DNA of 33,102 nucleotides from an uncultured Planctomycetia bacterium (GCA_964445715.1 CAYULJ010000002.1:1-33102); one strand, 5' to 3'; shown: positions 3,361 through 30,603, counted from the stretch's first letter. Program-made: numbers and translations. The notes: a model not told the origin generated them from the letters alone.

Positions 3361-3401
3361 CTTAAGTTTACACTTTAACATTGTTAAAGTGTAAACTTAA
3401 G
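3361..3401. repeat. 41-bp dispersed palindrome, copy 1
   Basis: CTTAAGTTTACACTTTAACA-T-TGTTAAAGTGTAAACTTAAG, perfect; 4 nt from the stop at 3406. Confidence 0.95.
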
Positions 3402-3405
3402 TTAG

Positions 3406-3825
3406 TTATTCAAGGGATACCAGAGGGGTCTTGCGTAGTTCCTTCTTTTCAGAGCGGATCTTTTTATACCTGAGCATCTTTTCCTTGGCCCTGCGGGAAC
3501 GCTTTCGCTTCTGACGTCTTATTTTTTCTATTTTTCTCTGCTCCTCTGCCTTCTTGCCTAGAATGAGCGATTCGATCTTATTGACAAGTATCCTTCTTGC
3601 AAGAAACCTATTCAATGCCTGGGAACGCTCTTTCTGGCACTTGACATCTATTCCCGTGGGCTTGTGCTTGAGATAGACACATGAGGATGTTTTATTGACC
3701 TTCTGCCCGCCCTTCTTACTTGCGCGTATAAATTTTTCCTCTATGTCGCTTTCTCTTATTCCAAGCGACTCCATCCGCGCCTTTAAAGCAGTTTCTTTTT
3801 CGCTGGTTACATTGAATATTGTCAT
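3406..3825 (-). CDS. RF-1-domain peptidyl-tRNA hydrolase (ArfB/C12orf65-like rescue factor)
   Basis: GGQKVNKTSS motif, RSQALNR, highly basic C-terminal tail, no codon-recognition domain. Confidence 0.8.
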   Translation of the reverse strand: MTIFNVTSEKETALKARMESLGIRESDIEEKFIRASKKGGQKVNKTSSCVYLKHKPTGIDVKCQKERSQALNRFLARRILVNKIESLILGKKAEEQRKIEKIRRQKRKRSRRAKEKMLRYKKIRSEKKELRKTPLVSLE

Positions 3826-3827
3826 AA

Positions 3828-5051
3828 TCAGATCTTCTTCCGCCAGAGAAATACTTTATCGTTCTGCCTTACAGAAAAAGGAAGCTTCACTCCGACTTCC
3901 TCGCCCCTTAAAGCCTTTTTTCTGGGTTTATGCCTATGCTCGATCCGACTTACTGAAACTATCCGAGCAGGCGTGTTTTTCCCGATAAACATTATATCAT
4001 CTCCCACATTAAAAGGGCGATCAAATACCTTTATACGCGCAACGCTTATCTTCTTGAAAAACTTTGTCACCTCTCCTATGAAGACCTTCTCGTGAGTATG
4101 TTCCACGCCTTTACTTATCTCACCTACGGGAACGCCAAATAAAAATCCCCTGGAAAACCCGCGGTTATAGACTGTTTCCAGCTCTTTCTTGAGACTTTTC
4201 TTTAGAGAAGTTGACAATCTGTTTTTCAATGCAGCGTCTATTGCTTTTCTGTAAACAGAAGTCGTCACCCTTACATACTCGGCAGATTTCATCCTTCCTT
4301 CTATCTTAAACGCGCGTATACCCACTGCGATCAAATCATCGATAAAACCAATTGTACACAAATCCTTTGGACTTAGAACATAATCTTTGCCTAAGCGATA
4401 AGAACCCTCCCCCTCGACACCAGAGATATAATATTCCCTGCGGCATGGCTGGAGGCACTGGCCTCGATTCGCCGATTTTCCGAACGAATGTTCAGATAAA
4501 AAACACCTACCCGAAACACTCACGCACATTGCGCCATGAATAAACGTCTCTATCTCGCAAGACAAACGCCTTTTCGTAATATAATCCGTGATCGACTTTA
4601 TGTTTTCCAAAGAACACTCTCTTGCGAGCACGATCCTTTTCGCGCCGAGCTTAGAAAAAAACAAAAGCGCCTCTTCATTGGAAACACTAGCTTGTGTCGA
4701 AAGATGGATTTTTAAGCCAAGCTTTTTCGCAATAGAAAAAACAGCCATGTCCCACAGGATAACTGCATCCACCCCTGCTTTTTTCGCAGCAGAGAGGATC
4801 CTCTCGACCTTAGCAAGCTCTTTATCCATGACTATCACATTAAGTGCCAGATAGCCTTTCTTATTATTATCATGCAGGAACTTCATTATCTTTGGTAATT
4901 CTGTTACATCAAAGTTAGTCGCCAAATTCCTCATATTGAGGATCTTCGCGCCAAAATAGACGCTATCTGCTCCGCCCTCTACTGCAGCTGCCAATGAAGG
5001 CCAGTCTCCCACAGGCGCAACAAGCTCAGGCTTTACAATATGTCTTTTCAT
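3828..5051 (-). CDS. Peptidase U32 family protein (TrhP/RlhA-type RNA hydroxylation)
   Basis: PELVAPVG, ETFIHGAMCVSVSGRC, NRGQCLQPCR, SPKDLC and FKIEGR motifs. Confidence 0.9.
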   Translation of the reverse strand: MKRHIVKPELVAPVGDWPSLAAAVEGGADSVYFGAKILNMRNLATNFDVTELPKIMKFLHDNNKKGYLALNVIVMDKELAKVERILSAAKKAGVDAVILWDMAVFSIAKKLGLKIHLSTQASVSNEEALLFFSKLGAKRIVLARECSLENIKSITDYITKRRLSCEIETFIHGAMCVSVSGRCFLSEHSFGKSANRGQCLQPCRREYYISGVEGEGSYRLGKDYVLSPKDLCTIGFIDDLIAVGIRAFKIEGRMKSAEYVRVTTSVYRKAIDAALKNRLSTSLKKSLKKELETVYNRGFSRGFLFGVPVGEISKGVEHTHEKVFIGEVTKFFKKISVARIKVFDRPFNVGDDIMFIGKNTPARIVSVSRIEHRHKPRKKALRGEEVGVKLPFSVRQNDKVFLWRKKI

Positions 5052-5072
5052 ATTTACCCACTCAACTTCTAC

Positions 5073-5113
5073 TTTAAGTTAACACTTTAACATTGTTAAA
5101 GTGTTAACTTAAG
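5073..5113. repeat. 41-bp palindrome, copy 2
   Basis: TTTAAGTTAACACTTTAACA-T-TGTTAAAGTGTTAACTTAAG; compensatory A-T at pair 9/33. Confidence 0.95.
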
Positions 5114-5120
5114 CATCATA

Positions 5121-5585
5121 TTATCTACCAAGAGATTCCCACAGCTTAAAGAAATGATCTTTTATAAGGATAAGTAACTTACCTGTATCGTCATTGTTAA
5201 AACCGAATTCTTTGAGTAATTTCTGGACCCTGTCTATATAAGTATTTATATAAGGATCTGGCTTGTTTCCATCTATTATTTCTGCGAGAAAAATCTCGTA
5301 TAGAGGCAATGACCTGTCAATGACCTCTTCTGCTTCCTTTGCTTCTAATCCTCCGCTTATCAATATCACGGCCATATTGAGAAAATACACCTCAATATCA
5401 TTTTCGAGCACTCCTGCTTTATCGCTGATCTTATCCAGCACTATCTTAGAAAAAGACTCTGCGATTTTCTTGGCTTCACCAGAAACATCTGCCTTGTTAA
5501 TCTCAATGCCAGGCGGTTGGATAGCCATTGCTGTCGCAGTAACAATCAAAACCAAACCAAAAGCTAAAACCATGATCTTCCTCAT
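5121..5585 (-). CDS. Hypothetical secreted protein
   Basis: Signal peptide (ATAMA), SD AAGGAG. Confidence 0.65.
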   Translation of the reverse strand: MRKIMVLAFGLVLIVTATAMAIQPPGIEINKADVSGEAKKIAESFSKIVLDKISDKAGVLENDIEVYFLNMAVILISGGLEAKEAEEVIDRSLPLYEIFLAEIIDGNKPDPYINTYIDRVQKLLKEFGFNNDDTGKLLILIKDHFFKLWESLGR

Positions 5586-5597
5586 ACATGCTCCTTT

Positions 5598-5789
5598 CTA
5601 TATTATTAAAAACAAAAAAGCCAAGAGCAGTAATGCAACAACAATCGCCAGCATGACTCTTGGCGTGGGATATTTAAATTTTCCCATAAAGCCCACGCTA
5701 CGCTTAAGGCTATCACCACAGTAAAGGCACAGCAAGGCCTCGTCATCATATATAGGCTTCCTGCAGTTAGGACAGATATATTCAGCCAT
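5598..5789 (-). CDS. Small zinc-ribbon membrane protein
   Basis: CPNC...CLYC plus C-terminal transmembrane helix. Confidence 0.65.
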   Translation of the reverse strand: MAEYICPNCRKPIYDDEALLCLYCGDSLKRSVGFMGKFKYPTPRVMLAIVVALLLLAFLFLII

Positions 5790-6066
5790 TGTTTTGCCTC
5801 ACATAAGCGCACTGCGTACGGCCCCACCAGGTCTTATGGAGCATATTTCGGATCGGAACGCAAAGCACAGGCTCGCCCTTGACAGTCTTTCGCAGGCCAA
5901 AGCGATTCTCGTAAATATCGCAGAGATACCTCCCATCAGCCCCTCTCTGCAGGTGCTCACATGGGTCGCCCTCTAAAACGCCGCAGCAGGCGCCACAACG
6001 CTTGCACTTAGCCTCATGCTCGTGAAGTTTCCTATCCTGGGTCTCATAATAGAACGCTTCGTCCAT
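5782..6066 (-). CDS. YkgJ-like CxxCxxCC cysteine-cluster protein
   Basis: CKRCGACC, C-x-HL and CDIYENR motifs. Confidence 0.7.
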   Translation of the reverse strand: MDEAFYYETQDRKLHEHEAKCKRCGACCGVLEGDPCEHLQRGADGRYLCDIYENRFGLRKTVKGEPVLCVPIRNMLHKTWWGRTQCAYVRQNNG

Positions 6067-6497
6067 TATCTTTTAATAAAATCAAAAAATATTGCCAGCG
6101 CCAATGCTAAAATAGATGAGGCAAATATAAAAAAATAATTTATCTTGTCTTTTTTTGAACTTAATTTACAAAGAATAGTGCCCAGGACCTCTCTATCGTG
6201 CTGAGAAAGATCTTTATTGTGAAGCAACTTATCTGTCAGTCCGGTCTTCTGCAGTTCTCTATGCAATACCTGATCGTATCTGAACTTATAAACAAAAAAT
6301 ATAAAAAAACCAATAACGCCTGTATACCATAATATCTTGGCAAACAAAGGATTTGCATCCAGGACAATATTCACCGCTCTTAAGGATACAACCGCTATAA
6401 GAGCTATAAAGAAAAAGATCCAGGAAGCTGCAGGATCTTTACAGCTCTTTAACTTAAAACAATCGTAGCAGACAAATTGTTTATTCTTCTTTGTCAT
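6066..6497 (-). CDS. Hypothetical membrane protein
   Basis: Three hydrophobic segments; ATG 6497 overlaps the rlmN stop (ATGA) and has a GGAGG SD. Confidence 0.65.
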   Translation of the reverse strand: MTKKNKQFVCYDCFKLKSCKDPAASWIFFFIALIAVVSLRAVNIVLDANPLFAKILWYTGVIGFFIFFVYKFRYDQVLHRELQKTGLTDKLLHNKDLSQHDREVLGTILCKLSSKKDKINYFFIFASSILALALAIFFDFIKR

Positions 6498-7525
6498 GGA
6501 CTTATCCTCCCAGCCAATTGACCGCATGCAGCATCTATATCGCTGCCTTTTGATTTTCGCAATGTAACACTTGCCTTTTTTCTTTTAAGAGCGCTCATAA
6601 ACAATTTTATTTTTTCTTCAGAAGGCGGCTCGTAACCAGTCTCTGCTACAGAGCTGCATCTTATAAGGTTCACCTTGGCATGCAACCTCCATGCTATCTC
6701 GCCAAGCTTCAAGGCGTCCTTTGTCGAATCATTTATGCCCTTTATCAATACATACTCTAGCGTTATTAGTCTTCCCATTTTTTCAATATACCTCTCGCAT
6801 GCCCTAAAAAGCTTCTCGAGCGGATAGCGCCTATTAACAGGCACCAGGATGTTTCTTAGAGGGTCATTCGCCGCGTGAAGTGATATCGAAAGATTCACCT
6901 GCAAGCCCAGTTCTTTCAGCTTGTCGATACCAGGTACTATGCCGCAGGTCGACACAGTGAACCTCCTAGAGCCTATACCAAGCCCTTCCTTTGAATTCAT
7001 GATCATTATGGACCTTGCCATGTTTACATAGCTATCCAATGGTTCGCCCATGCCCATAAAGACATAATTAGTCAGATCGTAGCGAAGATTGCTCTTTAAA
7101 AATAACACCTGGCCTGTTATCTCGGCAGGCCTGAGGTTTCTTGTAAAGCCGCGACTGCCGCTCGCACAAAAAGGACAGGCGAATTTACAGCCCACCTGCG
7201 TGGAAATACACACTGTCTTTCTTTTCCCGGCATATAAGACAACTGTCTCTATTAGATTATCGTCTTCTAGCTTAAAAACAAACTTCTCAGCGCCATCTCT
7301 TGACCTAAGCCTACCTTCCAGACCCAGGTCTCCCGAATAATAATTCTTACTCAATGTATCTATGAAACTAGCGGGCAAGTTTTTCATCCTTCCAAAATCA
7401 GAGACGCCCTTCCTGTAAAGCCACTCAAAAACCTGTTCTGCCCTGTAGCGCGGCTCGCCAAGATCCAAAAAATCATTTTCCAGTTCTTCTAAAGTGAAAT
7501 CTCTTATATCTGGGAAGGAAAGCAT
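6494..7525 (-). CDS. rlmN: 23S rRNA (adenine-2503-C2)/tRNA methyltransferase RlmN
   Basis: CISTQVGCKFACPFC radical-SAM motif, MGMGEP, ISLHA, EYVLIKGIND and DIDAACGQL; start 7525 or 7531. Confidence 0.93.
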   Translation of the reverse strand: MLSFPDIRDFTLEELENDFLDLGEPRYRAEQVFEWLYRKGVSDFGRMKNLPASFIDTLSKNYYSGDLGLEGRLRSRDGAEKFVFKLEDDNLIETVVLYAGKRKTVCISTQVGCKFACPFCASGSRGFTRNLRPAEITGQVLFLKSNLRYDLTNYVFMGMGEPLDSYVNMARSIMIMNSKEGLGIGSRRFTVSTCGIVPGIDKLKELGLQVNLSISLHAANDPLRNILVPVNRRYPLEKLFRACERYIEKMGRLITLEYVLIKGINDSTKDALKLGEIAWRLHAKVNLIRCSSVAETGYEPPSEEKIKLFMSALKRKKASVTLRKSKGSDIDAACGQLAGRISP

Positions 7526-7546
7526 GATCAATAGTATTAGCGGGAA

Positions 7547-7696
7547 CTAAGCTCTTTTTTTCTTTCTCTTTAAGGCCTTTTTCATCCTATCCTTTGCCTG
7601 CTCACTCGTCCTGCCTTCTGTCAGATGCCCGCAGCATATAGCTGCAAAGCCCTTGCGATTCTTCATCTTGAACACCTGCATCCTTGACTTAGACAT
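7547..7696 (-). CDS. Small basic hypothetical protein (49 aa), absent from the ORF track
   Basis: MSKSRMQVFKMKNRKGFAAICCGHLTEGRTSEQAKDRMKKALKRKKKRA*, SD AAGGAG, fills the gap exactly. Confidence 0.6.
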   Translation of the reverse strand: MSKSRMQVFKMKNRKGFAAICCGHLTEGRTSEQAKDRMKKALKRKKKRA

Positions 7697-7756
7697 ACTC
7701 AACTCCTTCCCCTACGCCTTAAGTTTACACCAAAAATACCACTTTATGATGCTTTA

Positions 7757-8200
7757 TTATTTGTCTCTCGTGCAGAGCCCTTTGAGCTTCTTCTTTTGCT
7801 CTTCTGTAAAAACATTTTTCAAAGCGACGTATGCCGCTATCAAAGCCTTGGTCTTTTCCTTTTTAAGCTCATATTTCTTATCTATTAACGCATTAACCGC
7901 ATTTACGTCTACCGAGTCTTCCCACATAGCTGCCTTGATATCAATAGCGAGTATGTCGATCTCAGCCTTTTTCCTTATCACTTCTTTTTTGGTGGTGATC
8001 TTCAGATCCTTTATCTTTTTTACCTGTTCATCGGAAAGGCCTAATTCTTCCTGGTTTTTAATAACCATCATCGCCTTGAGGTAAAATTTACTACTAAGGT
8101 CTCCCTTGTGATCCTTTTTCATGCCATGCTCTGCATAGACGTAAGTTGTAGATAAAGCAAAACAAACCAGCAGCATTAAAACAATAAATCTTTTACACAT
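7757..8200 (-). CDS. Spy/CpxP-like periplasmic helical protein
   Basis: Signal peptide, ELGLSDEQ and VFTEEQ LTxxQ-like motifs; SD AGGAGG before ATG 8200. Confidence 0.7.
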   Translation of the reverse strand: MCKRFIVLMLLVCFALSTTYVYAEHGMKKDHKGDLSSKFYLKAMMVIKNQEELGLSDEQVKKIKDLKITTKKEVIRKKAEIDILAIDIKAAMWEDSVDVNAVNALIDKKYELKKEKTKALIAAYVALKNVFTEEQKKKLKGLCTRDK

Positions 8201-8235
8201 GCCTTCCTCCTTCCGGCTCTTAGCCGTTCTTTTTA

Positions 8236-8655: not shown

Positions 8656-8665
8656 GCGATCCTCC

Positions 8666-9143: not shown

Positions 9144-9184
9144 CTTAAGTTCACACTTTAACATTGTTGAAGTGTGAACTTAAG
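9144..9184. repeat. 41-bp palindrome, copy 3
   Basis: CTTAAGTTCACACTTTAACA-T-TGTTGAAGTGTGAACTTAAG; compensatory C-G at 9/33; symmetry extends to 9142..9186. Confidence 0.95.
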
Positions 9185-9189
9185 AGGAC

Positions 9190-9840
9190 TTATTGCTTGG
9201 CGGAGGATTTATTGGCGGAGGACTTGCCTTCCGAAGTATAAAAACCAGGGTAAAATTCCTTGTAAAGCAGCTTGCTAAATCTGGGCCTATCTTTATCACC
9301 GAGTTCAACTATTTTAATGCCGGCTTCTAAACCACTGTCTTCATCTCGTTTCTTGACCCAGCAGATGCGGCCAACCATTGTAATGGGGCTATAAGGTTCA
9401 TCAGGATCACTTATTGCAAACTCGAGCACCTCGCCTACTTTCCTGTATTCTTTTAACTCTATCCTGAACCCACCTTCGCATATATCTGATGCCGAACCTT
9501 CTTTGTACCTTTCATCTGACGATCCCTTGCGCCAAGAAAGCGTCACTTCTTTTTTAAATCTAGGATACATCCTCTGTTCTTTTTTTATTCTCAATTTCAC
9601 AAGTACCCTATTTTTTAACTCTTCAGCGTTGTATAGACCATCTCCCTTTATCTTTATCTCCTTCATTACGCTGATAAAGGCACAGATGATCTTATTGTTA
9701 GTCAGGCGTTTTCCTGTAGTGAATAAGGCATCCCTACCTATATTGTCTATGAATTCAAGCTCTTCGCGGGTGAGATTTACCACTACGCGGCCAGCCTTTA
9801 ATCCTCTATTAATATTATTGTTAATAGCCTTTTCTTCCAT
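9190..9840 (-). CDS. PilZ-domain protein with an N-terminal possible ribbon-helix-helix domain
   Basis: QRMYPRF (RxxxR) and DICEGGF (D-x-S/C-x-x-G) PilZ motifs; N-terminal domain call is inference. Confidence 0.8.
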   Translation of the reverse strand: MEEKAINNNINRGLKAGRVVVNLTREELEFIDNIGRDALFTTGKRLTNNKIICAFISVMKEIKIKGDGLYNAEELKNRVLVKLRIKKEQRMYPRFKKEVTLSWRKGSSDERYKEGSASDICEGGFRIELKEYRKVGEVLEFAISDPDEPYSPITMVGRICWVKKRDEDSGLEAGIKIVELGDKDRPRFSKLLYKEFYPGFYTSEGKSSANKSSAKQ

Positions 9841-9920: not shown

Positions 9921-10010
9921 TCTACGGTAGCTGGTCGGCCTTGCCCGCCTTTGGTGGATTTAGGCACCTAGCTTTGCGCCTCATCTTTTCAGATGATTTG
10001 CCCTTTTACG
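9921..10010 (-). ncRNA. c-di-GMP-I (GEMM) riboswitch
   Basis: GGGCAAATCATCT-GAAA-AGATGAGGCGCAAAGCT...CCTAA...CAGCTACCG matches the class-I consensus; lies upstream of the PilZ gene. Confidence 0.9.
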
Positions 10011-10039
10011 GAGCATTTATCAATTTGTCTTCTACTATA

Positions 10040-10078: not shown

Positions 10079-10978
10079 TCACATTTTCAGCAGTTCATAG
10101 CCTTTTACTATGCCTTCACATAGCATCTGGACTATATTATTGAAGTCGCCAAGGTCTCCTTTTGAAAGCGCCATGTAATACTGGTATCTGTCATCTATCC
10201 TTATGATAGCAGGAGCAAAACCCTGGCTCAAAAGCTGTGTAATCATGATCAGCCTGCCAACCCTGCCGTTTCCATCAAAGAACGGATGGATCGCCTCGAA
10301 TTCATAGTGGTCCCGGGCTATCTTCGTTATAGGGTCATGGCCGTAACTATTGATGTTTTTGGCAAATCTTCCCATCCTGAGCGGCACATCCTGGGCTGAA
10401 GGCAGGGCAATATCTGCGCTTGTCAGATTGACCGCGCCTGTCCTGTATTTGCCAGGCAATTTGTTATTGAAATTGTACATGACTATCTCGTGGAGCCTCA
10501 GTATATATTCAGCGTCTATCCTGAAACCAGCGCGGACTTTATCAAAAAGACACACAAGCGCATTCTTGTGGTTCACAGCCTCGAATATCTCGAAGAGTTC
10601 CTTGCCTTTGACCTTTTTCCCGGCAAAGGCCTTTTCTGTCTCCTTTATTGTCATGCGGCTCCCTTCTATGGCATTGGAATGATAGGTCATCTCAAGGATA
10701 AATCTCCCCCGGATTTCTTTGTTGTTATTCAATATTTTCAGCGGATCTTTGATCGTCTCTTTTAACTCCAGCACTGCATCTCTTAAGTCCACATATTCCT
10801 TGAAAAGCTGGTCAATATCTCGAATCTGAGCTGAGTGCGGCTCTATACCTCTATCAAGCCAGCGATACACAGTCTTATAGGTAACCTCCAGTCGTCTGGC
10901 AAGCTCGGAGCGCGAGATCCCTGTTGTCTGCAGTATTTTATTTATCTTCTCTTTTGCGCTTAACCTAAAACTAACCAT
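10079..10978 (-). CDS. Fic family protein with N-terminal HTH
   Basis: HPFFDGNGRVGR Fic motif, SNAIEG autoinhibitory motif, SRSELARRLEVTYKTVYRW HTH. Confidence 0.9.
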   Translation of the reverse strand: MVSFRLSAKEKINKILQTTGISRSELARRLEVTYKTVYRWLDRGIEPHSAQIRDIDQLFKEYVDLRDAVLELKETIKDPLKILNNNKEIRGRFILEMTYHSNAIEGSRMTIKETEKAFAGKKVKGKELFEIFEAVNHKNALVCLFDKVRAGFRIDAEYILRLHEIVMYNFNNKLPGKYRTGAVNLTSADIALPSAQDVPLRMGRFAKNINSYGHDPITKIARDHYEFEAIHPFFDGNGRVGRLIMITQLLSQGFAPAIIRIDDRYQYYMALSKGDLGDFNNIVQMLCEGIVKGYELLKM

Positions 10979-11069: not shown

Positions 11070-11110
11070 CTTAAGTTCACATTTTAACATTGTTGGATTG
11101 TAAACTTAAG
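11070..11110. repeat. 41-bp palindrome, copy 4 (internally degenerate)
   Basis: CTTAAGTTCACATTTTAACA-T-TGTTGGATTGTAAACTTAAG; symmetry extends through ACTCCC/GGGAGT to 11064..11116. Confidence 0.9.
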
Positions 11111-12710: not shown

Positions 12711-12751
12711 CTTAAGTTTACATTTCAACAATGTTAAAGTGTAAACTTAGG
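12711..12751. repeat. 41-bp palindrome, copy 5 (supplies the stop codon of 12747..14123)
   Basis: CTTAAGTTTACATTTCAACA-A-TGTTAAAGTGTAAACTTAGG. Confidence 0.93.
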
Positions 12752-14123
12752 CAAAGCCGAACAAGCCGTCAGAGGCTATTAGCGCAGGTCGACCCTTCCA
12801 CGAGGCTAACTTTGCAATATCTTCTTCTTCTTTGCTGATCTGGACATACTTACCAAGCTGGCCTTGTAGCCATAATTCCTCTAAAACCAATGCGTCTTTC
12901 CATAAGTTTTGAGCGTATTGTTTCAATTGCTCGACATGTACCTCAGTGATAATGCGCGGCCTTAGCGTGTTCATCAAAGGCCCTAGCAGGTACACATTAC
13001 CAATCTCTATGGATCTCTTGTCCATCTCCTGTTGTATTTTTAAGACAAAGTCAAAGCCTAAGCTTAAAATAGCGTCATTGACCCTCTTGACCGCCTCTTT
13101 TATAGGCATGTTCGAACGCAGTATTGCGCTACTCTGGACACCTCCACCAGAACCGACATTAGTAGGAATGCCGCCGAATCTCGTCACAAAGCCGATAAGC
13201 CCGACATCTGTCACAAAACAACGAAAATCAGTCTGCCAGCGCTTTATAAAAAGTCTTTTCTTATCTTTGCCTATCCACGGAAATTCCTCTGCCCATAAAT
13301 CCATAGGCACAAGCGGCTGCACAATATAATCTCCGGCCTTCAATGCGCGCTCAATACCTGCATCCCTATCAGGCTCTTTGTGTCCTATGATAATACCTTT
13401 TCCAGAATAGCCATGAACTGGTTTCAATATAATACCAGCCCAGTTATCCTTGGCCCATTTCACCAGGTCTGGAATATTTTCACCATCAGGCCCGATTGTA
13501 GCGCGCTTATAAAACTGCCTTGTCCATGGCGTCCTCTTGATAGTCGTATCTGACAATCTGTTTTTATACTCTGAAGTCACTATTTCAAAAATGCCTTTTG
13601 CACCAACAGGCTCCATGCCTCTTGGATTCGTAACCAGACCCTGCTTTATAGCCGCCAAGAGCCCATCAAGATTATGCGATTTTTTTAGTCTCACAATGAC
13701 ATTGTTGTTAAAATCCAAGAAAACAGCTGTTAACCTGTCCCCTCCAACGCAGACCTTATCGTCTTTCAGTTCTAGGCCAGTTGGATCAACTAAAACCGCC
13801 TTGACACCTGGAAGGCTATTGAGGTATTTGGTAAATCTTATATTCTCGCCTACTTTATCTAATGTTTCTTTTTCCGCTACAATAGCTATAAAAGGAGCTT
13901 TTTTGGGAAAATTCTTTCGATGCGCTCTAAGAAGAAGTTCTGCAAAATTCGGCACAGGGTTCAATATGGGATCATCGAAATCCAACTCAATATCTAATCC
14001 ACTCTTCTTCTTTATCTTTTCCCAAGCAACCCTGCCTATTTCCTGAGCCATCTTCTGGTAATCCCATCCTCCAGGACTACCCAAATTCCACTCAGAATGA
14101 TATCCTAAAAACTCTTTTGTCAT
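12747..14123 (-). CDS. Glutathionylspermidine-synthase/circularly permuted ATP-grasp-like ligase
   Basis: EWNLGSPGG, ILKPVHGYSGKGIIIG, YIVQ, TDFR and PTNVGSGGG motifs. Confidence 0.65.
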   Translation of the reverse strand: MTKEFLGYHSEWNLGSPGGWDYQKMAQEIGRVAWEKIKKKSGLDIELDFDDPILNPVPNFAELLLRAHRKNFPKKAPFIAIVAEKETLDKVGENIRFTKYLNSLPGVKAVLVDPTGLELKDDKVCVGGDRLTAVFLDFNNNVIVRLKKSHNLDGLLAAIKQGLVTNPRGMEPVGAKGIFEIVTSEYKNRLSDTTIKRTPWTRQFYKRATIGPDGENIPDLVKWAKDNWAGIILKPVHGYSGKGIIIGHKEPDRDAGIERALKAGDYIVQPLVPMDLWAEEFPWIGKDKKRLFIKRWQTDFRCFVTDVGLIGFVTRFGGIPTNVGSGGGVQSSAILRSNMPIKEAVKRVNDAILSLGFDFVLKIQQEMDKRSIEIGNVYLLGPLMNTLRPRIITEVHVEQLKQYAQNLWKDALVLEELWLQGQLGKYVQISKEEEDIAKLASWKGRPALIASDGLFGFA

Positions 14124-14133: not shown

Positions 14134-14174
14134 CCTAACTTTACATTTCAACAACGTTAAAGTGTAAAGTTAGG
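14134..14174. repeat. 41-bp palindrome, copy 6
   Basis: CCTAACTTTACATTTCAACA-A-CGTTAAAGTGTAAAGTTAGG; compensatory changes at pairs 2/40 and 6/36; abuts the stop at 14175. Confidence 0.92.
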
Positions 14175-15721: not shown

Positions 15722-15762
15722 TTTAAGTTTACACTTTAACATTGTTAAAGTGTAAACTTAAG
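15722..15762. repeat. 41-bp palindrome, copy 7
   Basis: TTTAAGTTTACACTTTAACA-T-TGTTAAAGTGTAAACTTAAG; ends just before the SD of the DUF885 gene. Confidence 0.95.
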
Positions 15763-16465: not shown

Positions 16466-16525
16466 CTTAGGTTCGCATACCACTTCGTGGCACAGGCTTC
16501 CCCAATGTTAAAGTGTGAACTTAAG
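16466..16525. repeat. Palindrome copy 8, left arm interrupted by a 19-nt insert
   Basis: CTTAGGTTCGCA-[TACCACTTCGTGGCACAGG]-CTTCCCCA-A-TGTTAAAGTGTGAACTTAAG; the right arm is intact and coding. Confidence 0.8.
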
Positions 16526-17470
16526 ACGGAATATCAATAGCCATGCAGGGATGGTTATTATGGCGAGTAAATGCGAATAGACTATCATGCCGCTCAAAAA
16601 TCTATTGTCAGCATTCACGTATTGTCCTATCACGACAAGGCTTACAGCAGCAGGCATTGTCGCCTCTAAAAAAATAAAAAACTTCAAAGCGTACGGCAGC
16701 GGCAGACACCTAATTAAACCAAGCGCTATAATAGGCAAGATTATCAGCTTAGCGAACATGCAAGTCGCCAATGCGCCCCAGTTTTCGGATTTAAATCCGC
16801 GATATGCCGCAAGTTGCGCGCCAAGCACTATCAATGCTAAAGGAAAACTCGAATCGCCCAGCATGGCCAATGGGTCAAATACCAGATTATGGACACTGCC
16901 TTTGCCCATTAAAAAAACCCATACGATTGATAATATCGTAACTGTGACAGGCGGATTTAAAACAGCACTGAGCTTGAAATTTCCCTTGAGATTTCCTGAG
17001 AGAAACGCAGGGCCAAATGACCATATGAGTACATTAAAACCCATAAGAAAGAGAAATATGTAGACAAGGACCTTGTCGCAAAACGCCCCCGTGCAAACAA
17101 AAGCCACTAAAGTCATGGGCAAGTACCCTGAGTTCTGAAATGCGCAAGACATCATAAATTCCCGGCCTGACTTAAAACCCTTCAAAGGCCTTTGGAATAA
17201 ATATCCTACGCCCAGGCCTATAAAAGCCATGATCATTGAGCTAATAGGCAATATCCACCATTTCGGGAACACAAAAGGATCGAATGTAGATGTTATTTTG
17301 GTAAAGATCAAGGCAGGGAAGCACGCCCAGATCAATATGCTGCTAAGATCTCCTATAGAGTCTCTTTTTATAATCTTCTTCGCATAAAGCGCATAGCCTA
17401 TGGCGAGCAAAAAGAATATCTTCAATATGCCATATGCTATGGAATGAAAATTATAAAACCCTTCTGTCAC
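16508..17470 (-). CDS. AEC (auxin efflux carrier) family transporter
   Basis: FPALIF, FQNSGYLP, LNPP and EATMPAA motifs; about 10 TM helices. Confidence 0.88.
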   Translation of the reverse strand: MTEGFYNFHSIAYGILKIFFLLAIGYALYAKKIIKRDSIGDLSSILIWACFPALIFTKITSTFDPFVFPKWWILPISSMIMAFIGLGVGYLFQRPLKGFKSGREFMMSCAFQNSGYLPMTLVAFVCTGAFCDKVLVYIFLFLMGFNVLIWSFGPAFLSGNLKGNFKLSAVLNPPVTVTILSIVWVFLMGKGSVHNLVFDPLAMLGDSSFPLALIVLGAQLAAYRGFKSENWGALATCMFAKLIILPIIALGLIRCLPLPYALKFFIFLEATMPAAVSLVVIGQYVNADNRFLSGMIVYSHLLAIITIPAWLLIFRLKFTL

Positions 17471-17484: not shown

Positions 17485-17525
17485 CTTAAGTTTACACTTT
17501 AACAATGTTGAAGTGTAAACTTAAA
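17485..17525. repeat. 41-bp palindrome, copy 9
   Basis: CTTAAGTTTACACTTTAACA-A-TGTTGAAGTGTAAACTTAAA. Confidence 0.95.
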
Positions 17526-20224: not shown

Positions 20225-20265
20225 CTTAAGTTCACATTTTAACATTGTTAAAATGTGAACTTAAG
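20225..20265. repeat. 41-bp palindrome, copy 10
   Basis: CTTAAGTTCACATTTTAACA-T-TGTTAAAATGTGAACTTAAG, perfect with two compensatory pairs (9/33, 13/29). Confidence 0.95.
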
Positions 20266-23116: not shown

Positions 23117-23231
23117 GCTTCAAAAAGACGTTCGTCCGCCCCAGCGAAGCGTCCATCGCTCCATTTTATTTTTTGCTCGCCTAAGTTTACACTTTAACAA
23201 TGTTAAAGTGTAAACTTAGGCACCCATGCCC
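23117..23231. repeat. Composite repeat: arm + palindrome copy 11 (23180..23220) + arm stub
   Basis: 23117..23179 closely matches the reverse complement of 28327..28389; core CCTAAG...CTTAGG is perfect; GCACCCATGCCC stub matches 28276..28286 reversed. Confidence 0.92.
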
Positions 23232-25201: not shown

Positions 25202-26263
25202 TTAAAACCTCCACGTCAGTCCGGTCTGTAAACTTACATCCGGGCTCGAAGCAGCACTTATATTTTCCGTGATACCAAAATGACAAGATATATCGCTCCT
25301 CTCCTTCCATGTATAATTAAATGCTATGCCAAAATCATGGCTATCATTATCTAAGGGATTAGTCTCGCTATGTGGATAAGGAGTGGTGTTTCCTGTGACC
25401 TGAGTCACTATAGAGAACCTTTTCGTAAAACAATATTCTAATGCCAGAAGATACGAATAGACATGCTCGCCTATGCCCAACTCATCAAAAACTTTAGGCT
25501 TTTCTATGGCAACAATATTAGCACCCCCGTAGAGAAAAAGCCTATCAAAAAAACCTTTATCCACCAAGACGCCAAAACCGTAATCAAATTCCCCGCTGCC
25601 GAGCATGTCATCTTCATTTGCTGTTGGAAATTTAACAGACGATCTTAAAGAAAAATTAGGCCAGAACCAGCCACTGTCTCGCAGCAATTGATATTTTGCA
25701 TTAAGCATGACATCGCCGATGCCTTCTACGGATTTATTCATGGAAATCACATTCCTATTATTATATATAAAAGAATAATCAAATTCGTTCGACCCCTGTC
25801 TTTCCCTTGATCGAGGCGTCCTGGCTCCGACCCCATCCTCAAAACCCTCTATAACATCATCTAAGTAACCGCTAGAAAAACTTGTATAGGGTACTTCTAA
25901 GCCTATTTCGAGATTATCGTAAAGCCCATACCTAAAATCAAGAGTCACAGTAGAGACTTCAAGATCTATGTCTATCTGGTAAAGTGATGAGGCAGGAGTA
26001 AAGGCGCTTACAGTGATATTCGAGACTGTGTAGTTTGCATTTGTCGTAAATTTGTTACGCTCTCTGACTGATGCCTTATCCGGGACCATCTGCAGATAGA
26101 TCAGGTGCAAAGGCATTTGATTTCTTATTCTCAAAGGGCCGCCATTATTATACTCACTTTCTTCATCCCAATCATCCGCAAACGCAAAACTATTAGTAAA
26201 AATAAAAAATGATACCGTGAGAAACGATAAAAACACCAAGATGCCAAAACTTTTTTTCTTCAT
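25202..26263 (-). CDS. DUF3187-like outer-membrane beta-barrel protein
   Basis: Signal peptide, GPLRIRNQMP, GYLDDVIEGF, KFPTA...GSG and C-terminal WRF. Confidence 0.7.
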   Translation of the reverse strand: MKKKSFGILVFLSFLTVSFFIFTNSFAFADDWDEESEYNNGGPLRIRNQMPLHLIYLQMVPDKASVRERNKFTTNANYTVSNITVSAFTPASSLYQIDIDLEVSTVTLDFRYGLYDNLEIGLEVPYTSFSSGYLDDVIEGFEDGVGARTPRSRERQGSNEFDYSFIYNNRNVISMNKSVEGIGDVMLNAKYQLLRDSGWFWPNFSLRSSVKFPTANEDDMLGSGEFDYGFGVLVDKGFFDRLFLYGGANIVAIEKPKVFDELGIGEHVYSYLLALEYCFTKRFSIVTQVTGNTTPYPHSETNPLDNDSHDFGIAFNYTWKERSDISCHFGITENISAASSPDVSLQTGLTWRF

Positions 26264-26299
26264 TCATGTCCTCCCAGCCTCTAATATTTTCAACACCAT

Positions 26300-26440
26300 C
26301 TTAAGTTTACACTTTAACAATGTTAAAGTGTAAACTTAAGCACCGTGCCCGCAAAAAATAAAACGGAGCGAGGCCCACATTTTCAAAAAACTAACACTGG
26401 CCGAGCGTCTTTTTGAAGCTTGCTCTGGCTGTCGAAAACT
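26300..26440. repeat. Composite repeat: palindrome copy 12 (26300..26340) + chimeric arm
   Basis: Perfect core followed by CACCGTGCCCGCAAAAAATAAAACGGAGCGAGGCC...GCGTCTTTTTGAAGC, modules shared with 28227..28411. Confidence 0.9.
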
Positions 26441-26460
26441 AACACTCCTCCTAACATGAC

Positions 26461-26489
26461 TTGAAAACACTCCAATTTTATGGTAAACT
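26461..26489 (+). promoter_or_regulatory. Sigma70-type promoter for the plus-strand riboswitch
   Basis: TTGAAA-17-TAAACT with TG extension, just upstream of the aptamer. Confidence 0.65.
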
Positions 26490-26495
26490 TGTAAT

Positions 26496-26633
26496 AGCCG
26501 ATAAGGGCAAACCCTAGAGAAATCAGGGGGCGCAAAGCCAACAGACCTAAGTTACTAGTGATAAGCCGTAACTCATTGCAAATAAAAGAGTTAGTTAGGC
26601 AATCAATAGTAATATGGTGGCTGGGTTACCGAG
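26496..26633 (+). ncRNA. c-di-GMP-I riboswitch with a long stem extension, antisense to the GGDEF gene
   Basis: GGGCAAACCCTAGA-GAAA-TCAGGGGGCGCAAAGCC...GACCTAA-[~60-nt stem]-ATGGTGGCTGGGTTACCGA matches the class-I consensus. Confidence 0.85.
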
Positions 26634-26639
26634 CGATGA

Positions 26640-26677
26640 AAAGCCGACGCTACTGGCCTTTATCGGCTTTCTTTATT
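26640..26677 (+). terminator. Putative terminator hairpin after the riboswitch
   Basis: AAAGCCGA-N15-TCGGCTTT followed by CTTTATT; overlaps the GGDEF stop codon. Confidence 0.5.
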
Positions 26678-28113
26678 ACCCTCTTATATATCTCGTTAAA
26701 CTCACTCTCAAGAACAAAAAACGGCGCAACATTACATCCAGTAAAATTCTTTATTTCGTTTATAGCCTCGATATCCTTGGGATTTAGCATAACAACGCTT
26801 ATCACGTTCTTTTCCTGATTAATCGGAATAATATTGCGCTCCTTGATAAGCCTTGCCGGTATATTCTTTGCGTAGCCCTCTAATTTTTCATCTTTATCTA
26901 AAGACCTTATATCATAATGCGGTATATTAAGTTGTGATTCCAATGCCCTCACTATATCTCCCGAAGAAGCATAACCAAGATCAATGATGCTTTGGCCTAT
27001 TCTCTGGCCTGTACTCCAATGTTTATCCAAAGCCATCTCGAGTTGATGAATATCTAAGATCTGGGACTCCAAAAGGATCTGCCCTAAAGGCCTATAGTTA
27101 AACTTTATCTCTGCTGTAAATTCTTTTCGGACAGATTTGCCAGGCGATTCTTCTATAGGGATAAATTCTTTTTTTACTTGCTTCCTCCGATTGACTAAAA
27201 AATTGCTACCAGGAAGAGTCTTCAAGTGACGCTTTATCTCTGTTATTATTTCCATTAGCTCAACGATGTTCTGTAATTTGAATTCGCTGTTGTTTGCTAT
27301 TGCTACCGAGACACTCATAAGCGGCATCTCTACTACGTTTCCCCTGCGATCCTTGGCTACAATATGACCCCTATCCCTGTCATCCGCGCTGTAATGAAAA
27401 GAGGTCAGTCTGCTAAAATCCAGTATTGATTCAGAGGCTATCAATCTCTCTCGCTTAGGCGTAGTGACTACGACAAAATCATCGCCGCCTATGTGTCCGA
27501 CAAAATCACTTTTATTTCCATGTTTCTTTACAGTATTTGATATGATATAAGCTGTGTGCCTTATTACGCTATCCCCTTTTCTGTATCCGTATTTATCGTT
27601 GAAACATTTAAAATTATCAATGTCATAATACGCCACTGAAAAGATCGCGCCTTCCTCGATCTTTGCCTGAATGATCTTTTCTATCTGGCGATTCCCGGGA
27701 AGCCTTGTCAGCGCGTTTGCGTGGAGCTGATGCGTTATGCGGCGCAATGCCATCTCCATCCTCACTTCTAGATCAATAGGGTCAGGCGGATTTACGATAT
27801 AATCATCCACGCCCTGCTCTAGCTCGAGCATCTTCTTTCTGATCCGCTTCTTGTCTATAAGGATTACTACGGGGATATGAGCGGTGAGAAAGTCTTCCTT
27901 GAGGGCTTTGGAAAGCTGCAACCCGTCCATTTCCGGCAGGTTAAAATCGACGATTATTATATCTGGCTGCTCGCGTCTTACTGTCCCAAGGACTGACAAC
28001 CCATCCGTTGCAGTGACGACTTCGTAATCCCATGCCTTCAACAGATACGTCAATATATCTACGATATTCTTGTCGTGCTCGGCTAATAATACCTTTCTAT
28101 TTCTCGTTGCCAT
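26650..28113 (-). CDS. Response regulator-GGDEF-MshEN fusion (putative diguanylate cyclase)
   Basis: REC (PDIIIVDFNLPEMDG), DIDNFKCFNDKYG, GHIGGDDF, then RPLGQILL...RIGQSIIDLG MshEN repeats. Confidence 0.88.
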   Translation of the reverse strand: MATRNRKVLLAEHDKNIVDILTYLLKAWDYEVVTATDGLSVLGTVRREQPDIIIVDFNLPEMDGLQLSKALKEDFLTAHIPVVILIDKKRIRKKMLELEQGVDDYIVNPPDPIDLEVRMEMALRRITHQLHANALTRLPGNRQIEKIIQAKIEEGAIFSVAYYDIDNFKCFNDKYGYRKGDSVIRHTAYIISNTVKKHGNKSDFVGHIGGDDFVVVTTPKRERLIASESILDFSRLTSFHYSADDRDRGHIVAKDRRGNVVEMPLMSVSVAIANNSEFKLQNIVELMEIITEIKRHLKTLPGSNFLVNRRKQVKKEFIPIEESPGKSVRKEFTAEIKFNYRPLGQILLESQILDIHQLEMALDKHWSTGQRIGQSIIDLGYASSGDIVRALESQLNIPHYDIRSLDKDEKLEGYAKNIPARLIKERNIIPINQEKNVISVVMLNPKDIEAINEIKNFTGCNVAPFFVLESEFNEIYKRVIKKADKGQ

Positions 28114-28119
28114 ATTATC

Positions 28120-28148
28120 ATTATAAATTAAAAAAAATCCACGGTCAA
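28120..28148 (-). promoter_or_regulatory. Sigma70 promoter directly before the ATG (leaderless-type)
   Basis: TTGACC-17-TATAAT with the ATG 6 nt after the -10 box; no SD. Confidence 0.65.
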
Positions 28149-28226
28149 CCAGAATAAGTAGTATTTGAAAAAATTATTACGCTTCTTAAGCCAAAAGAGG
28201 TTCTGCTTCTTCTTGTGGCTCTACAG

Positions 28227-28411
28227 TTGTCTTTCCAACCTGAGCAGTGCTTCAAAAAGCCTCTTTATTTTTTGCGGGCATGGTGCTTAAGTTTACACTT
28301 TAACAATGTTAAAGTGTAAACTTAAGCGAGCAAAAAATAAAACGGAGCGAAGGCCGCCTCGCTGGGGCGGACAAGCGTCTTTTTGAAGCACTGCTCAGGT
28401 TGGAAAGACAA
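28227..28411. mobile_element. 185-bp MITE/REPIN-like nested inverted-repeat element containing palindrome copy 13 (28286..28326)
   Basis: Perfect 33-bp terminal IR (28227..28259 / 28379..28411), inner 12-bp IR (28264..28275 / 28330..28341), central 41-bp palindrome; mobility is inferred. Confidence 0.7.
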
Positions 28412-28454
28412 AAGTATAGTTGCAAGGAAAGTATATTCTGCTATAATGGATGTT

Positions 28455-29153
28455 ATGAAACTTTCGATTTTGATTCCCGCGTACAATGAAGAGCGTTTTA
28501 TACAAGAGATAATGTCAGAAATAAAATCTCTCGATCTTTCGCGCCTGGGGATACCGGAAAAAGAGGTCATCCTTATAAACGACGGCTCTACTGATAGGAC
28601 AGTAGAAAAAGCCTCGAATGTCATTCCGAATATAAAAATCATACACCACATAAAAAACCAAGGCAAAGGCGCAGCGCTTACATCAGGCATCCCCCACGCC
28701 ACCGGCGACATAATAATAATACAGGACGCGGACCTGGAATACAGACCATCTTTATATCCCGAGCTTTTAAAACCGATTGTCGAAGGAGGAGCCGATATCG
28801 TATACGGGTCCAGATTCTTGGAGAAGCCTCATCCAGAAAACATGAGGATGTCGTATTTTCTAGCTAACCGCTTTGGGACGTTTTTAGTAAACATTCTGAA
28901 CAGTATACATCTTACTGACCCTATGACATGTTTTAAGGTCTTTAGAAAAAAGACATTGGAAGGCATAAAGCTTACCTGCAAAGGCTTTGGAACTGATGCG
29001 GAGCTTACTGCGAAAGTCACCAAGAAAGGTTTTAAGATAAAAGAAGTGGCTGTGCCTTACAAGGCAAGGACTTTCAAGGAAGGAAAAAAATTTCACCCTC
29101 TTTGTTCTCTTAATGTACTCTGGTCTATAATAAAGTACTCACTCCGAGGCTAA
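28455..29153 (+). CDS. Glycosyltransferase family 2 (DPM1-like)
   Basis: [33 protein letters not shown] and VYGSRF motifs; the track start at 28383 lies in the repeat. Confidence 0.92.
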
Positions 29154-29437
29154 CCGAATAATCCTTTGGCCTTTAACTTACCTGTTGTTTTTTTGTAATC
29201 ATCGAAATCAATAAATGTCAGATTAGGTCTTTTATTTTTTATTTTTGTTATTTCTCTGGTCCGGGAAGCAATGTATTTAAAAGGTGTTCCGCATTTCGGG
29301 CAACTAGTTGCTTTTGAATAATCTATGCCAAGCTCTCTGCACTTAGCGCAATCTCCCGTAGACTCACCTACTATAAGAAGATGAGCCATAACATCGTTTA
29401 TCTCAATCTTTGTCCATACGCGTATAAAATCAGACAT
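29150..29437 (-). CDS. Zinc-ribbon hypothetical protein
   Basis: CAKC...CPKC; the track's upstream extension runs through a terminator hairpin, so ATG 29437 is preferred. Confidence 0.65.
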
Positions 29438-29440
29438 ATC

Positions 29441-29494
29441 AAAAAATACCCCGTACCGCTTTTTTGCCATCAAAAAGCGGTACGGGGTAAAAAA
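29441..29494 (-). terminator. Intrinsic terminator after the csp gene
   Basis: TACCCCGTACCGCTTTTT / AAAAAGCGGTACGGGGTA inverted repeat with A/T tracts. Confidence 0.8.
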
Positions 29495-29508
29495 GGTTGC
29501 TATATAGT

Positions 29509-29709
29509 TTATAACAGCTTGACTACGTTAGCTGCTTGCTCCCCCTTTGGACCTTGGACTATATCGAATTCTACTTCTTCTCCTTCTGCCAAACTCTTAT
29601 AGCCTTCTCCCTGTATGGCTGTATGATGAACAAACACTTCCTTGCCGCTTTCAGGAACAATAAAGCCATAGCCTTTTTTGTTATCAAACCACTTAACTTT
29701 TCCTTTCAT
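29509..29709 (-). CDS. csp: Cold-shock domain protein
   Basis: GKVKWF, KGYGFI (RNP1) and VFVH (RNP2); promoter TTGACA-17-TATACT at 29776..29804. Confidence 0.95.
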
Positions 29710-29810
29710 AGCGCTTCTTTCTCCTCCTGCCGTTCACCTCACAAAACCCTTTCTGTAAGGTATAAATTAAAAATAAGTATAGTACCACGTCGACATTTTG
29801 TCAAATTTTT

Positions 29811-30524
29811 CTACTGCTCTGGCAATTCCTCAGTGGCCTTTTCTTCGTAATCGTGAAAAATGCTTCTCGCCTTTATATTATGGTCCTTCTCTATGGTCTT
29901 TAATCTCTCTTCTAATTCGTGCTGCATCTTGAGCATAATGCGCACAACATCTGCTATGGGGTCGGGTAAATTCCCGTGCTCAAAATCCAGCGTCAATTTT
30001 TCCATTGTCTTTTTTTCAACGACCTTGCCAGGCACGCCTACTACGGTCGCACCAGGCGGAACGTCTTTAATAACAACAGAACCAGAGCCTATCTTTGCGT
30101 TATCGCCTATATTTACAGGACCTAGGATGCAAGAATTAGAACCTACGACCACGTTTTTGCCCAGTGTCGGGTGTCGCTTTTCCTTTTCAAGACTTGTCCC
30201 GCCCAAGACCACTCCCTTATAAAGAAGCGTATTATCTCCTATCTCAGCGGTCTCGCCAATGACAATGCCCATTCCATGGTCTATAAAAACACTATGACCT
30301 ATCTTTGCTCCAGGATGTATCTCTATCCCAGTAAGAAACCTTGAGACATGAGAAATAATCCTTGCTACCATGTAAAGCCTCTTCAAATAGAAAAAATTAG
30401 CTATCCTGTGAAGCCATAAGGCATGAAGCCCTGGATAGCATAATATTATTTCTAAGGTGTTTTTTGCCGCAGGATCTTTCTCTTTGGCAGATTTTATATC
30501 CTCTTTCATCCTATCTATAAACAT
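29811..30524 (-). CDS. cysE: Serine O-acetyltransferase
   Basis: [26 protein letters not shown] and KRHPT hexapeptide-repeat motifs. Confidence 0.95.
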
Positions 30525-30562
30525 GCAAGCCCTCCCTTTATAGATTTAGCTAAAAATAACCA

Positions 30563-30603
30563 CCTAAGTTTACACTTTAACAATGTTAAAGTGTAAACTT
30601 AGG
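30563..30603. repeat. 41-bp palindrome, copy 14
   Basis: CCTAAGTTTACACTTTAACA-A-TGTTAAAGTGTAAACTTAGG, perfect. Confidence 0.95.

Follow-up and report, generated by a model that had tools for sequence, protein, structure and literature searches.

Palindromic copies in the window

The present work deals with a 41-bp palindrome dispersed over the first 33,102 bases of contig C2 of the assembly G000 (this whole stretch being called the window), and with a transposase gene, located on another contig of the same assembly, to which this palindrome appears to be tied. G000 comprises 1,586,528 bases in 153 contigs (41.8% G+C, 90% completeness), and open reading frames provided 1423 gene calls covering 93% of it. 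Its host is an uncultured, streamlined marine lineage of Omnitrophota. Records elsewhere sharing the palindrome core are indeed mostly labelled Candidatus Omnitrophota, and the metagenome runs that contain the stretch, from four studies, are marine or seawater ones, no RNA run being listed among them. G001, the only congener of G000, is ~18% diverged, with intergenic regions that align poorly; the window is collinear with G001:C2 at 78-92% identity.

An initial annotation of the window had listed 14 palindrome copies, with a central T in six and a central A in eight. All of them exist, and the same counts were obtained for the central base (T=6, A=8). A repeat finder returned 13 full 41-bp copies plus a fourteenth right arm at 16498-16523, and a search with the consensus 41-mer, allowing up to three mismatches, gave matches at 10 of the listed places, compared with 0 in 100 shuffles. 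The copy at 16466, then described as interrupted, is present; it is not a broken copy, but a member of a 60-nt variant ('type B') with 23 copies in the genome. This element (16466-16525, minus strand) is the source of the stop codon of the gene at 16508-17470.

The copies at 3361-3401, 26300-26340 and 28286-28326 have the exact consensus sequence. The first, with a central T, separates an RF-1 domain gene (stop at 3406) from an RNase_T-type exonuclease gene; the second belongs to a stretch of ~170 nt without counterpart in G001; and the third, which provides the stop codon of the gene at 28322-28711, forms the centre of a larger inverted repeat (28212-28426). Compensated changes characterize the copies at 5073-5113 (TTAAC/GTTAA arms), the G001 counterpart of which is a 12-nt arm remnant only, at 9144-9184 (TTCAC/GTGAA variant) and at 20225-20265 (two compensated pairs), the last two being filled at the orthologous G001 sites. 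Filled sites in G001 also correspond to the copies at 17485-17525, at 11070-11110, which departs from the consensus by five changes and adjoins a Fic/DOC gene present only in G000, and at 12711-12751, an asymmetric variant found in the opposite orientation in G001, and the TAA of which is the stop codon of the gene at 12747-14123 (minus strand). The copy at 14134-14174 is of a G001-type subfamily (CCTAAC...GTTAGG), with one change from the G001 regional consensus and seven from that of G000. No copy is found at the G001 site orthologous to 15722-15762, which reads ...CATC TAAG CC.... Finally, the copies at 23180-23220 and 30563-30603 share the form CCTAAG...CTTAGG; the former is included in a longer repeat of 108-115 nt with an inverted counterpart at 28282-28389, and the latter is filled in G001.

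Other features accompany these copies. A composite repeat of 115-150 nt with the 41-mer at its centre was seen in the window (28212-28426 and 23117-23231), on contig C57 and at several places in G001, and a separate 66-nt repeat (26355-26420) recurs in the genome as 15 other matches, each 55 nt or longer. The Fic/DOC-family gene next to the palindrome at 11070 (10079-10978, minus strand) is missing from the G001 region, the locus measuring ~1.16 kb in G000 versus 67 nt in the otherwise collinear G001. At gathering level, Rfam matches over the whole window were limited to two c-di-GMP-I (cyclic di-GMP) riboswitches, at 9923-10012 (minus strand, 71.6 bits), upstream of a PilZ-domain gene (9190-9840), and at 26496-26633 (plus strand, 58.9 bits); no Rfam family matches a palindrome copy. 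A tRNA scan of the window found no tRNA.

A genome-wide family of hairpin elements

The palindrome is not restricted to the window. The scan of G000 yielded 375 copies of the 41-mer (up to 8 substitutions) and 23 of the 60-nt variant, in line with the hundreds of copies that had been anticipated; these 398 elements represent 1.06% of the assembly, at a density of about one copy per 4 kb. Among the 375 copies, 80 are exact, 104 carry one change and 64 carry two. An assembly artefact is argued against by a metagenome contig that spans the copy at 12711-12751 without any difference, and by the presence of arms at only 9 of the 306 contig ends of G000. Contigs of the organism were found in runs from four studies. 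No joint skipping exactly one copy was seen in the contigs of four DNA runs, which is uninformative on excision since contigs drop rare variants; the contig joints listed connect different copies and look like repeat-induced joins.

The arms, AT-rich and 20 bp long as first described, are separated by a constant offset of 21 in 364 arm pairs, which implies a single central base. Borders are sharp at positions 1 and 41, beyond which bases are unconserved; positions 3-39 are nearly invariant save for covarying pairs, and positions 1, 2, 40 and 41 vary more. Complementarity within flank pairs is seen in a proportion of 0.19-0.30 of copies, that is to say at chance level, and an extension of the palindrome past 41 bp was thus ruled out. 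The logo of 374 copies displays CTTAAG at both ends and no GTAG, GT[AG]G or CGTC foot, confirming the dissimilarity to GTAG/CGTC repetitive extragenic palindromic (REP) sequences pointed out initially. Target-site duplication of 2-8 bp was looked for as well: 0-15 of the 375 flank pairs were identical, at or below shuffled means.

The stem of the hairpin is kept through compensated pair changes. Pair 9-33 is T-A in 296 of the 375 copies, C-G in 70, A-T in 4, G-C in 1 and mismatched in only 4, and pair 6-36 is G-C in 335 copies and C-G in 32. When folded as single-stranded DNA, the consensus forms 19 pairs with a 3-base loop (-16.4 kcal/mol, z -7.25). A single asymmetry, C.A or T.G, affects pair 16-26 in 194 of the 375 copies and is tightly linked to the centre base (90 vs 7), so that such copies have a direction. 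In the 60-nt variant, one arm is entire and the other is reduced to its outer 12 nt, with a conserved insert of 25 nt in place of 6 inner bases; this variant shows no preference for orientation relative to flanking genes (12 copies with one strand in sense, 7 with the other).

Several nested structures were observed. The 25-nt insert carries a small CCAC-GAA-GTGG hairpin. The G001 site orthologous to window position 16466 holds a 200-nt element bounded by the same arms, and the exact centre of a palindrome, between both arms, is occupied by a ~160-nt insert comprising several strong hairpins at C49:6942-7141, C41:4179-4341 and C95:4832-4990; this insert occurs in both species and has 3-4 copies. 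Other repeat families are also nested between outer arms, and the hairpin tip looks like a preferred landing site. A permissive Rfam search with the 60-nt variant and the 200-nt C49 element returned only chance-level matches to long non-coding RNAs. An attC/integron reading was dropped, given that the copies are scattered among housekeeping genes over most contigs and that the PF00589 matches of the genome, three in all, lie on contigs other than that of the window.

Position of the copies relative to genes

The first observation that copies never sit in the middle of a gene extends to the whole genome, where the called genes contain none of the 398 elements. Junctions between same-direction genes hold 332 elements, convergent ones 21 and divergent ones 18, a distribution close to the baseline mix. 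Stop codons are an evident point of contact, since the 41-mer contains TAA in all three frames on both strands. In the 366 cases in which it faces the 3' end of a gene, the TAA at element positions 3-5 is the stop codon in 134, the TAA of the other two frames in 17 and 18, and 101 further copies begin 0-10 nt past the stop. Summed from the table, 299 of these 366 copies either overlap with the stop codon or are at most 15 nt away from it, and 134 of the 1423 called genes (~9%) end in the TAA of an element. Three causes are conceivable for this excess at positions 3-5: sequence containing TAA may be the target of insertion, selection may favour the C-terminal change that is shortest, or the genome, being streamlined, may have lost spacers. 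Clean empty sites that would give the target sequence were sought by comparing G000 and G001, and this yielded one remnant, one site reading ...TAAG... and two uninformative cases.

At same-direction junctions with a 41-mer, gene spacing is at most 80 nt in 213 of 313 cases; median gene spacing is 59 nt at junctions with a copy versus 13 nt at those without. Such tight junctions suggest that most copies are transcribed within operons. Among asymmetric copies, 105 have the G.U-compatible form on the sense strand and 62 have the C.A mismatch there, a modest excess that fits an RNA-level constraint or a replication-strand bias alike. Intrinsic termination was rejected, as the stem is AT-rich and no T-run follows it (T at +1 to +8 amounts to 10-36%). 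The arrangement TTTACA-17-TGTAAA was also considered as a promoter and dropped by eye, key -10 bases being missing from the second hexamer.

A transposase bracketed by palindromes

The initial annotation had noted no transposase, integrase or REP-associated tyrosine transposase (RAYT) in the window, and no obvious cognate enzyme. The former statement holds, the window being without match to Y1 transposase, DDE transposase, TnpB or tyrosine recombinase profiles; the latter is true of the window only, as a RAYT-like Y1 transposase is encoded on contig C5, between two copies of the palindrome. A profile search of G000 with PF01797 (Y1_Tnp) detected three genes, all outside the window, and the PF00589 matches are likewise absent from its contig. 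PF01609 (DDE_Tnp_1), PF00665 (rve) and PF07282 (TnpB) had zero matches in the whole G000 assembly.

The product of the gene at C5:25560-26351 is a HUH/Tyr (Y1) transposase of 263 aa, with a helix-turn-helix (HTH) at its C-terminus and a score of 35.6 bits against PF01797 (cut-off 23). The gene is bracketed by palindromes at C5:25499-25539 and C5:26334-26374: the upstream copy ends 20 nt before the start of the gene, and the downstream copy encodes its last five codons and stop. Across 59 relatives, little or no variation affects the HUH motif (N75-H76-x-H78) and the tyrosine motif (S133-L134-Y135-I-H-x-N-P-V), and the C-terminal HTH segment is conserved too. The latter is helical in a structure model built from the 59-sequence alignment (pLDDT 87), which was preferred to an earlier model from 12 sequences (pLDDT 55.8, not used). 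In a fold search with this model, the best match in the PDB was 4ER8 (E 2.1e-6, TM 0.75 normalised to the target), the Escherichia coli REP-associated tyrosine transposase bound to a REP hairpin; IS200, IS608 and ISDra2 transposases occupied ranks 2-12. The protein belongs to a large family, with 1220 members at E <= 1e-5 among 2296 candidates scored. Among the 120 matches listed, names are limited to 'transposase' or 'hypothetical protein', and those with a named organism belong mostly to Omnitrophota, Elusimicrobia and WOR-3 being represented once each.

Association of transposase and palindrome in related genomes

Orthologs of the C5 transposase were detected in 14 of 37 other family genomes (52-74% identity, E <= 1e-59), with one ortholog-level match per genome except in G024, where a second, partial one occurs. 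At most of these loci the transposase gene follows the end of the same upstream gene, which in G000 encodes a pyridoxal phosphate-dependent (PALP-family) enzyme. The transposase gene is thus single-copy and vertically inherited. A mismatch-tolerant detector found a long palindrome upstream at 13 of 15 loci and downstream at 9 of 12, compared with 2 of 30 control windows inside the gene; its misses are imperfect palindromes visible in the flanks, and in G010 the same 31-nt element was confirmed on both sides. Such palindromes have 18-22-bp arms, a 1-3-base centre and conserved outer arms of AACTT-N-ACA type, and their inner stems differ. Among transposase loci of 12 genomes, several were seen to encode the last residues of the transposase (K-F-T-L, K-Y-T-F, N-F-T-K) in the outer arm of the downstream palindrome, and a conserved promoter-like stretch (TTGAAAGAAAA...) was seen between two upstream palindromes.

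The ortholog of each related genome is accompanied by a palindrome that is abundant in that same genome. Indeed, the flank palindromes of G051 gave 28/24 matches in G051 and those of G010 84/76 in G010, with none in the four other genomes tested in either case; those of G021 gave 84/78 in G021 and 0-2 in each of the four others tested. The G000 core was found 303 times in G000, 87 times in G001, once in G023 and never in 38 other relatives. Counts of the outer-arm pattern were 361 in G000, 477 in G001, 200 in G051, 136 in G021 and 130 in G010 (controls 0-1), and the six family genomes with zero outer-arm palindromes are all without ortholog. Y1 paralogs without HTH behave differently: at 0 of their 15 loci does this palindrome type adjoin the gene, a single locus having one ~1.4 kb away. 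The association also extends to 80 metagenome loci encoding relatives at 36-53% identity, where long palindromes precede the gene in 23 of 74 cases and follow it in 26 of 69, compared with 0 of 80 controls inside the gene.

The two other Y1 genes of G000 have repeats of their own. That at C97:644-1315, whose 223-aa product has no HTH, lies between inverted copies of another repeat, 20 nt long, with 54 half-copies in G000 and 21 inverted doublets 40-59 nt apart, an arrangement resembling REPINs (REP doublets forming hairpins). That at C22:592-1200 has short inverted flanks of GGGGACGT type, with 4 occurrences in G000. A third repeat family was also observed in this genome, consisting of a canonical, GTAG-footed, GC-rich hairpin with 31 half-copies (e.g., C5:7195-7234 and C10:12339-12378).

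Turnover between the two congeners

The comparison of filled and empty orthologous sites, suggested by the initial annotation, was run against G001 and gave three differences in occupancy among 13 sites, with no target sequence read from a clean empty site. Ten of the 13 window 41-mer sites are filled in both species and three in G000 only; the reverse, a site filled in G001 alone, was seen at least once. Between the consensus sequences of the two species, 8 of 41 positions differ. At the shared sites (n=10), nine of the copies in G000 resemble the G000 consensus more closely, and nine of those in G001 the G001 regional consensus. Independent decay would leave both consensuses ancestral, which implies that the copies of each species were replaced or corrected together. 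The remnant half-arms found beside full copies, nested copies and the 12-nt remnant at the G001 site of 5073 fit such a replacement, and orientation is sometimes reversed between the two species at shared sites. A comparable situation is described in excerpts of a study on Pseudomonas REPINs, where copies remain in place yet come to match the predominant RAYT of the genome (bioRxiv 10.1101/2024.10.14.618302).

Relation to known systems

Taken together, the system shows most of the defining features of REP-RAYT systems and lacks the GT[AG]G/CGTC foot. As in the REP/BIME (bacterial interspersed mosaic element) and TnpA-REP system of E. coli (a RAYT; 4ER8), high-copy extragenic hairpins are accompanied by a single Y1 HUH gene bracketed by copies, copies are found near stop codons, and the predicted fold of the enzyme is closest to 4ER8. 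The stems nevertheless differ, being AT-rich with nearly perfect 20-bp arms and one central base in G000 versus imperfect, GC-rich and 12-14 bp long in E. coli REPs, and the G000 enzyme, unlike E. coli TnpA-REP, has an added N-terminal segment and a C-terminal HTH and scores under the NCBIfam cut-off. The donation of stop codons has a precedent in GTAG REPs, the ends of which provide TAG stops according to excerpts of PMC3733652. In the excerpted part of PMC6006769, the pairing of one enzyme with one repeat family is presented as a hallmark of REP-RAYT systems.

The Pseudomonas REPIN-RAYT systems (Bertels and Rainey) share with G000 a single-copy, vertically inherited transposase at a conserved genomic position with a repeat population specific to it, and orthologous sites that are retained with a sequence following the genome's own type. 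Unlike REPINs, the 41-mer is a single hairpin and not two imperfect inverted REPs around a spacer; the C97-associated repeat, in contrast, makes true inverted doublets around its own Y1 gene. By its RAYT-like core and C-terminal HTH, the enzyme is reminiscent of TIRYT/TIRtrons (Di Nocera 2013) and TnpA-Y1 subclass 2.1 (Quentin 2018), a likeness drawn from their published descriptions. Excerpts of PMC6006769 describe subclass 2.1 as RAYT-like, longer than RAYTs and with a C-terminal HTH_23/HTH_28-like domain, reported in 2018 without REP-like sequences nearby and usually with the terminal inverted repeat motif GGGGWSAS; according to those of PMC3733652, the inverted repeats flanking TIRYTs have no GTAG and are, in some genomes, self-complementary and repeated. 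The flanks of the G000 gene differ in that they consist of a 41-bp palindrome present in hundreds of copies, and not of GGGGWSAS. Analogy with IS200/IS605 elements (IS608, ISDra2) further suggests Y1 HUH chemistry, recognition of single-strand hairpins and insertion without target duplication, but here the transposase gene is not multiplied and TnpB is unmatched; it is the bare hairpin that has multiplied instead.

Nature and possible mechanism of the system

We conclude, with good though not complete confidence, that the 41-bp palindromes are REP-type, short, non-autonomous elements tied to one single-copy, vertically inherited, RAYT-like Y1 transposase with a C-terminal HTH. They would constitute a variant of the REP/RAYT type, AT-rich, nearly perfect, untagged and served by an HTH-bearing enzyme, whose mobility and RNA-level effects we infer. 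The REP/MITE-like family suspected at the outset (MITE, miniature inverted-repeat transposable element) is thus REP-like, but not of an undescribed kind, since systems made of a REP and a RAYT are known. In the best-ranked matches of a literature search, the present variant did not turn up, and nothing linked Omnitrophota to the terms RAYT, REPIN or REP.

Several observations weigh against this conclusion. Binding, cleavage and transposition by the enzyme are predictions drawn from sequence, and the palindrome has no GT[AG]G foot, unlike canonical REPs. All three Y1 proteins score 62-65 bits against the NCBIfam model REP_Tyr_transpos (64 for the C5 protein) for a cut-off of 80, and the HTH scores 23.4 bits against HTH_23 (cut-off 24.6), HTH_7 and HTH_28 also being under their cut-offs. 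Searches of PDB sequences, with the single protein and with two profiles, miss 4ER8 and return weak HTH matches and IS200 transposases (E 0.2-0.9), so that the link to 4ER8 rests on the fold search. Bracketing in G000 proves little by itself, since 87 of 1176 genes are accompanied at both ends by a copy at most 60 nt away, and its weight is carried by the comparison across genomes. There, 10 of the 23 family genomes without detected ortholog still contain 14-74 outer-arm palindromes; these ten are metagenome-assembled genomes of 75-97% completeness, in which the gene may be unassembled. Lastly, just 3 of the 13 window sites differ in occupancy between congeners, and one of them looks like a deletion remnant and not an empty site.

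From a mechanistic point of view, a copy would fold into a hairpin of 19-20 bp on single-stranded DNA, probably at replication forks. A dimer of the transposase would recognise this hairpin, and Tyr135, with an HUH-bound metal, would cut and rejoin at its foot. Copies may in this way be inserted and spread, or existing ones exchanged or rewritten, without target duplication. With a TAA in all six frames, insertions within genes would be lost, and survivors would pile up at gene ends and tight cistron junctions, where they often donate the stop codon. Hairpins that are transcribed as part of operons probably influence the stability of mRNA 3' ends and translation termination, as E. coli REPs do, and such an RNA-level effect is a likely consequence by analogy.

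A more speculative extension, which we regard as rather unlikely, is that of a domesticated 'punctuation' system of streamlined genomes, in which the enzyme would rewrite copies in place at fixed gene-end sites rather than mainly scatter them, and the host would use them as six-frame stops and as hairpin insulators between cistrons. In-place rewriting would explain the species-specific sequence found at hundreds of orthologous sites.

Alternative explanations

The hairpins may be kept mainly for an RNA-level function in the host, an explanation compatible with the link to the transposase and to which we grant a real but minority share of probability. The 20-bp stem would shield the preceding cistron against 3' exonucleases; it might otherwise be cleaved by a double-strand RNase or slow terminating ribosomes, thereby setting the relative expression of neighbouring genes. 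The location of 332 of 398 copies between same-direction genes points in this direction, and so do the 213 of 313 junctions of at most 80 nt (median 59 nt), which leave no room for a promoter, the 299 of 366 copies that overlap a stop codon or lie within 15 nt of one, and the sense-strand preference of asymmetric copies for the G.U-compatible form (105 vs 62 for C.A). This modest bias could equally be one of replication strand, as genes and replication tend to share direction; moreover, the 60-nt variant has no orientation preference (12 vs 7), and the missing T-run excludes intrinsic terminators. Earlier work cited in the excerpted part of PMC12306157 offers a precedent, E. coli REPs located at most 15 nt from a stop codon being found to stall ribosomes and to lower translation. 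A function of this kind, here proposed from the sequence, would leave unexplained, if acting alone, both the bracketing of each genome's transposase by palindromes and the concerted change within species.

It is improbable, in our opinion, that the palindromes are instead double-stranded sites for a dimeric protein organising or regulating the chromosome, possibly through the transposase's own HTH, and kept by selection on binding and not by mobility. The perfect two-fold symmetry of the element would suit such a protein, as would the conservation across genera of outer half-sites (TTTACA...TGTAAA type) around a variable inner stem, and the conserved C-terminal HTH of the linked enzyme. Compensated changes in both arms, which include double transversions (G-C to C-G, 32 copies), point however to single-strand pairing; a parallel change of ~400 sites at 8 positions would be hard to achieve through site-by-site selection; and remnant half-copies and nested copies look like the turnover of a mobile element. 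As for MITEs left by a DDE-type insertion sequence, with the arms as terminal inverted repeats, this origin is largely refuted and we give it hardly any credence. The repeat is indeed short, dispersed, inverted and extragenic, but its arms meet at a single central base and hence enclose no internal sequence, no 2-8 bp target-site duplication accompanies it, and DDE_Tnp_1 and rve are unmatched in an assembly that is 90% complete. In addition, arm variants are inverted and not direct (CCTAAG...CTTAGG), so that the outer CTTAAG is not a duplicated target.

Significance

For genome annotation, these results mean that palindrome copies supply real stop codons and should not be taken for terminators or CRISPR remnants. 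Nearly all that has been established on REP-RAYT systems comes from Proteobacteria, in which the hairpins are GC-rich, imperfect and marked by GTAG; their logic is encountered here in an uncultured marine phylum and with a quite dissimilar repeat, which amounts to 361-477 copies per 1.6 Mb in the two congeners. The species-specific consensus at shared sites constitutes a clean natural case for in-place repeat replacement. The association of enzyme and palindrome may be general, given a large protein family with many members flanked by long palindromes, and it could account for many of the unexplained intergenic palindromes of metagenome-assembled genomes. If the punctuation hypothesis were true, this large HTH-bearing Y1 family, reported without REPs, would gain a repeat as its partner and a role in the host, both in Omnitrophota and in the uncultured phyla close to it. 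More broadly, the system identified here could widen the scope of REP-RAYT biology, which would then take in Y1 enzymes with an HTH as well as uncultured phyla.

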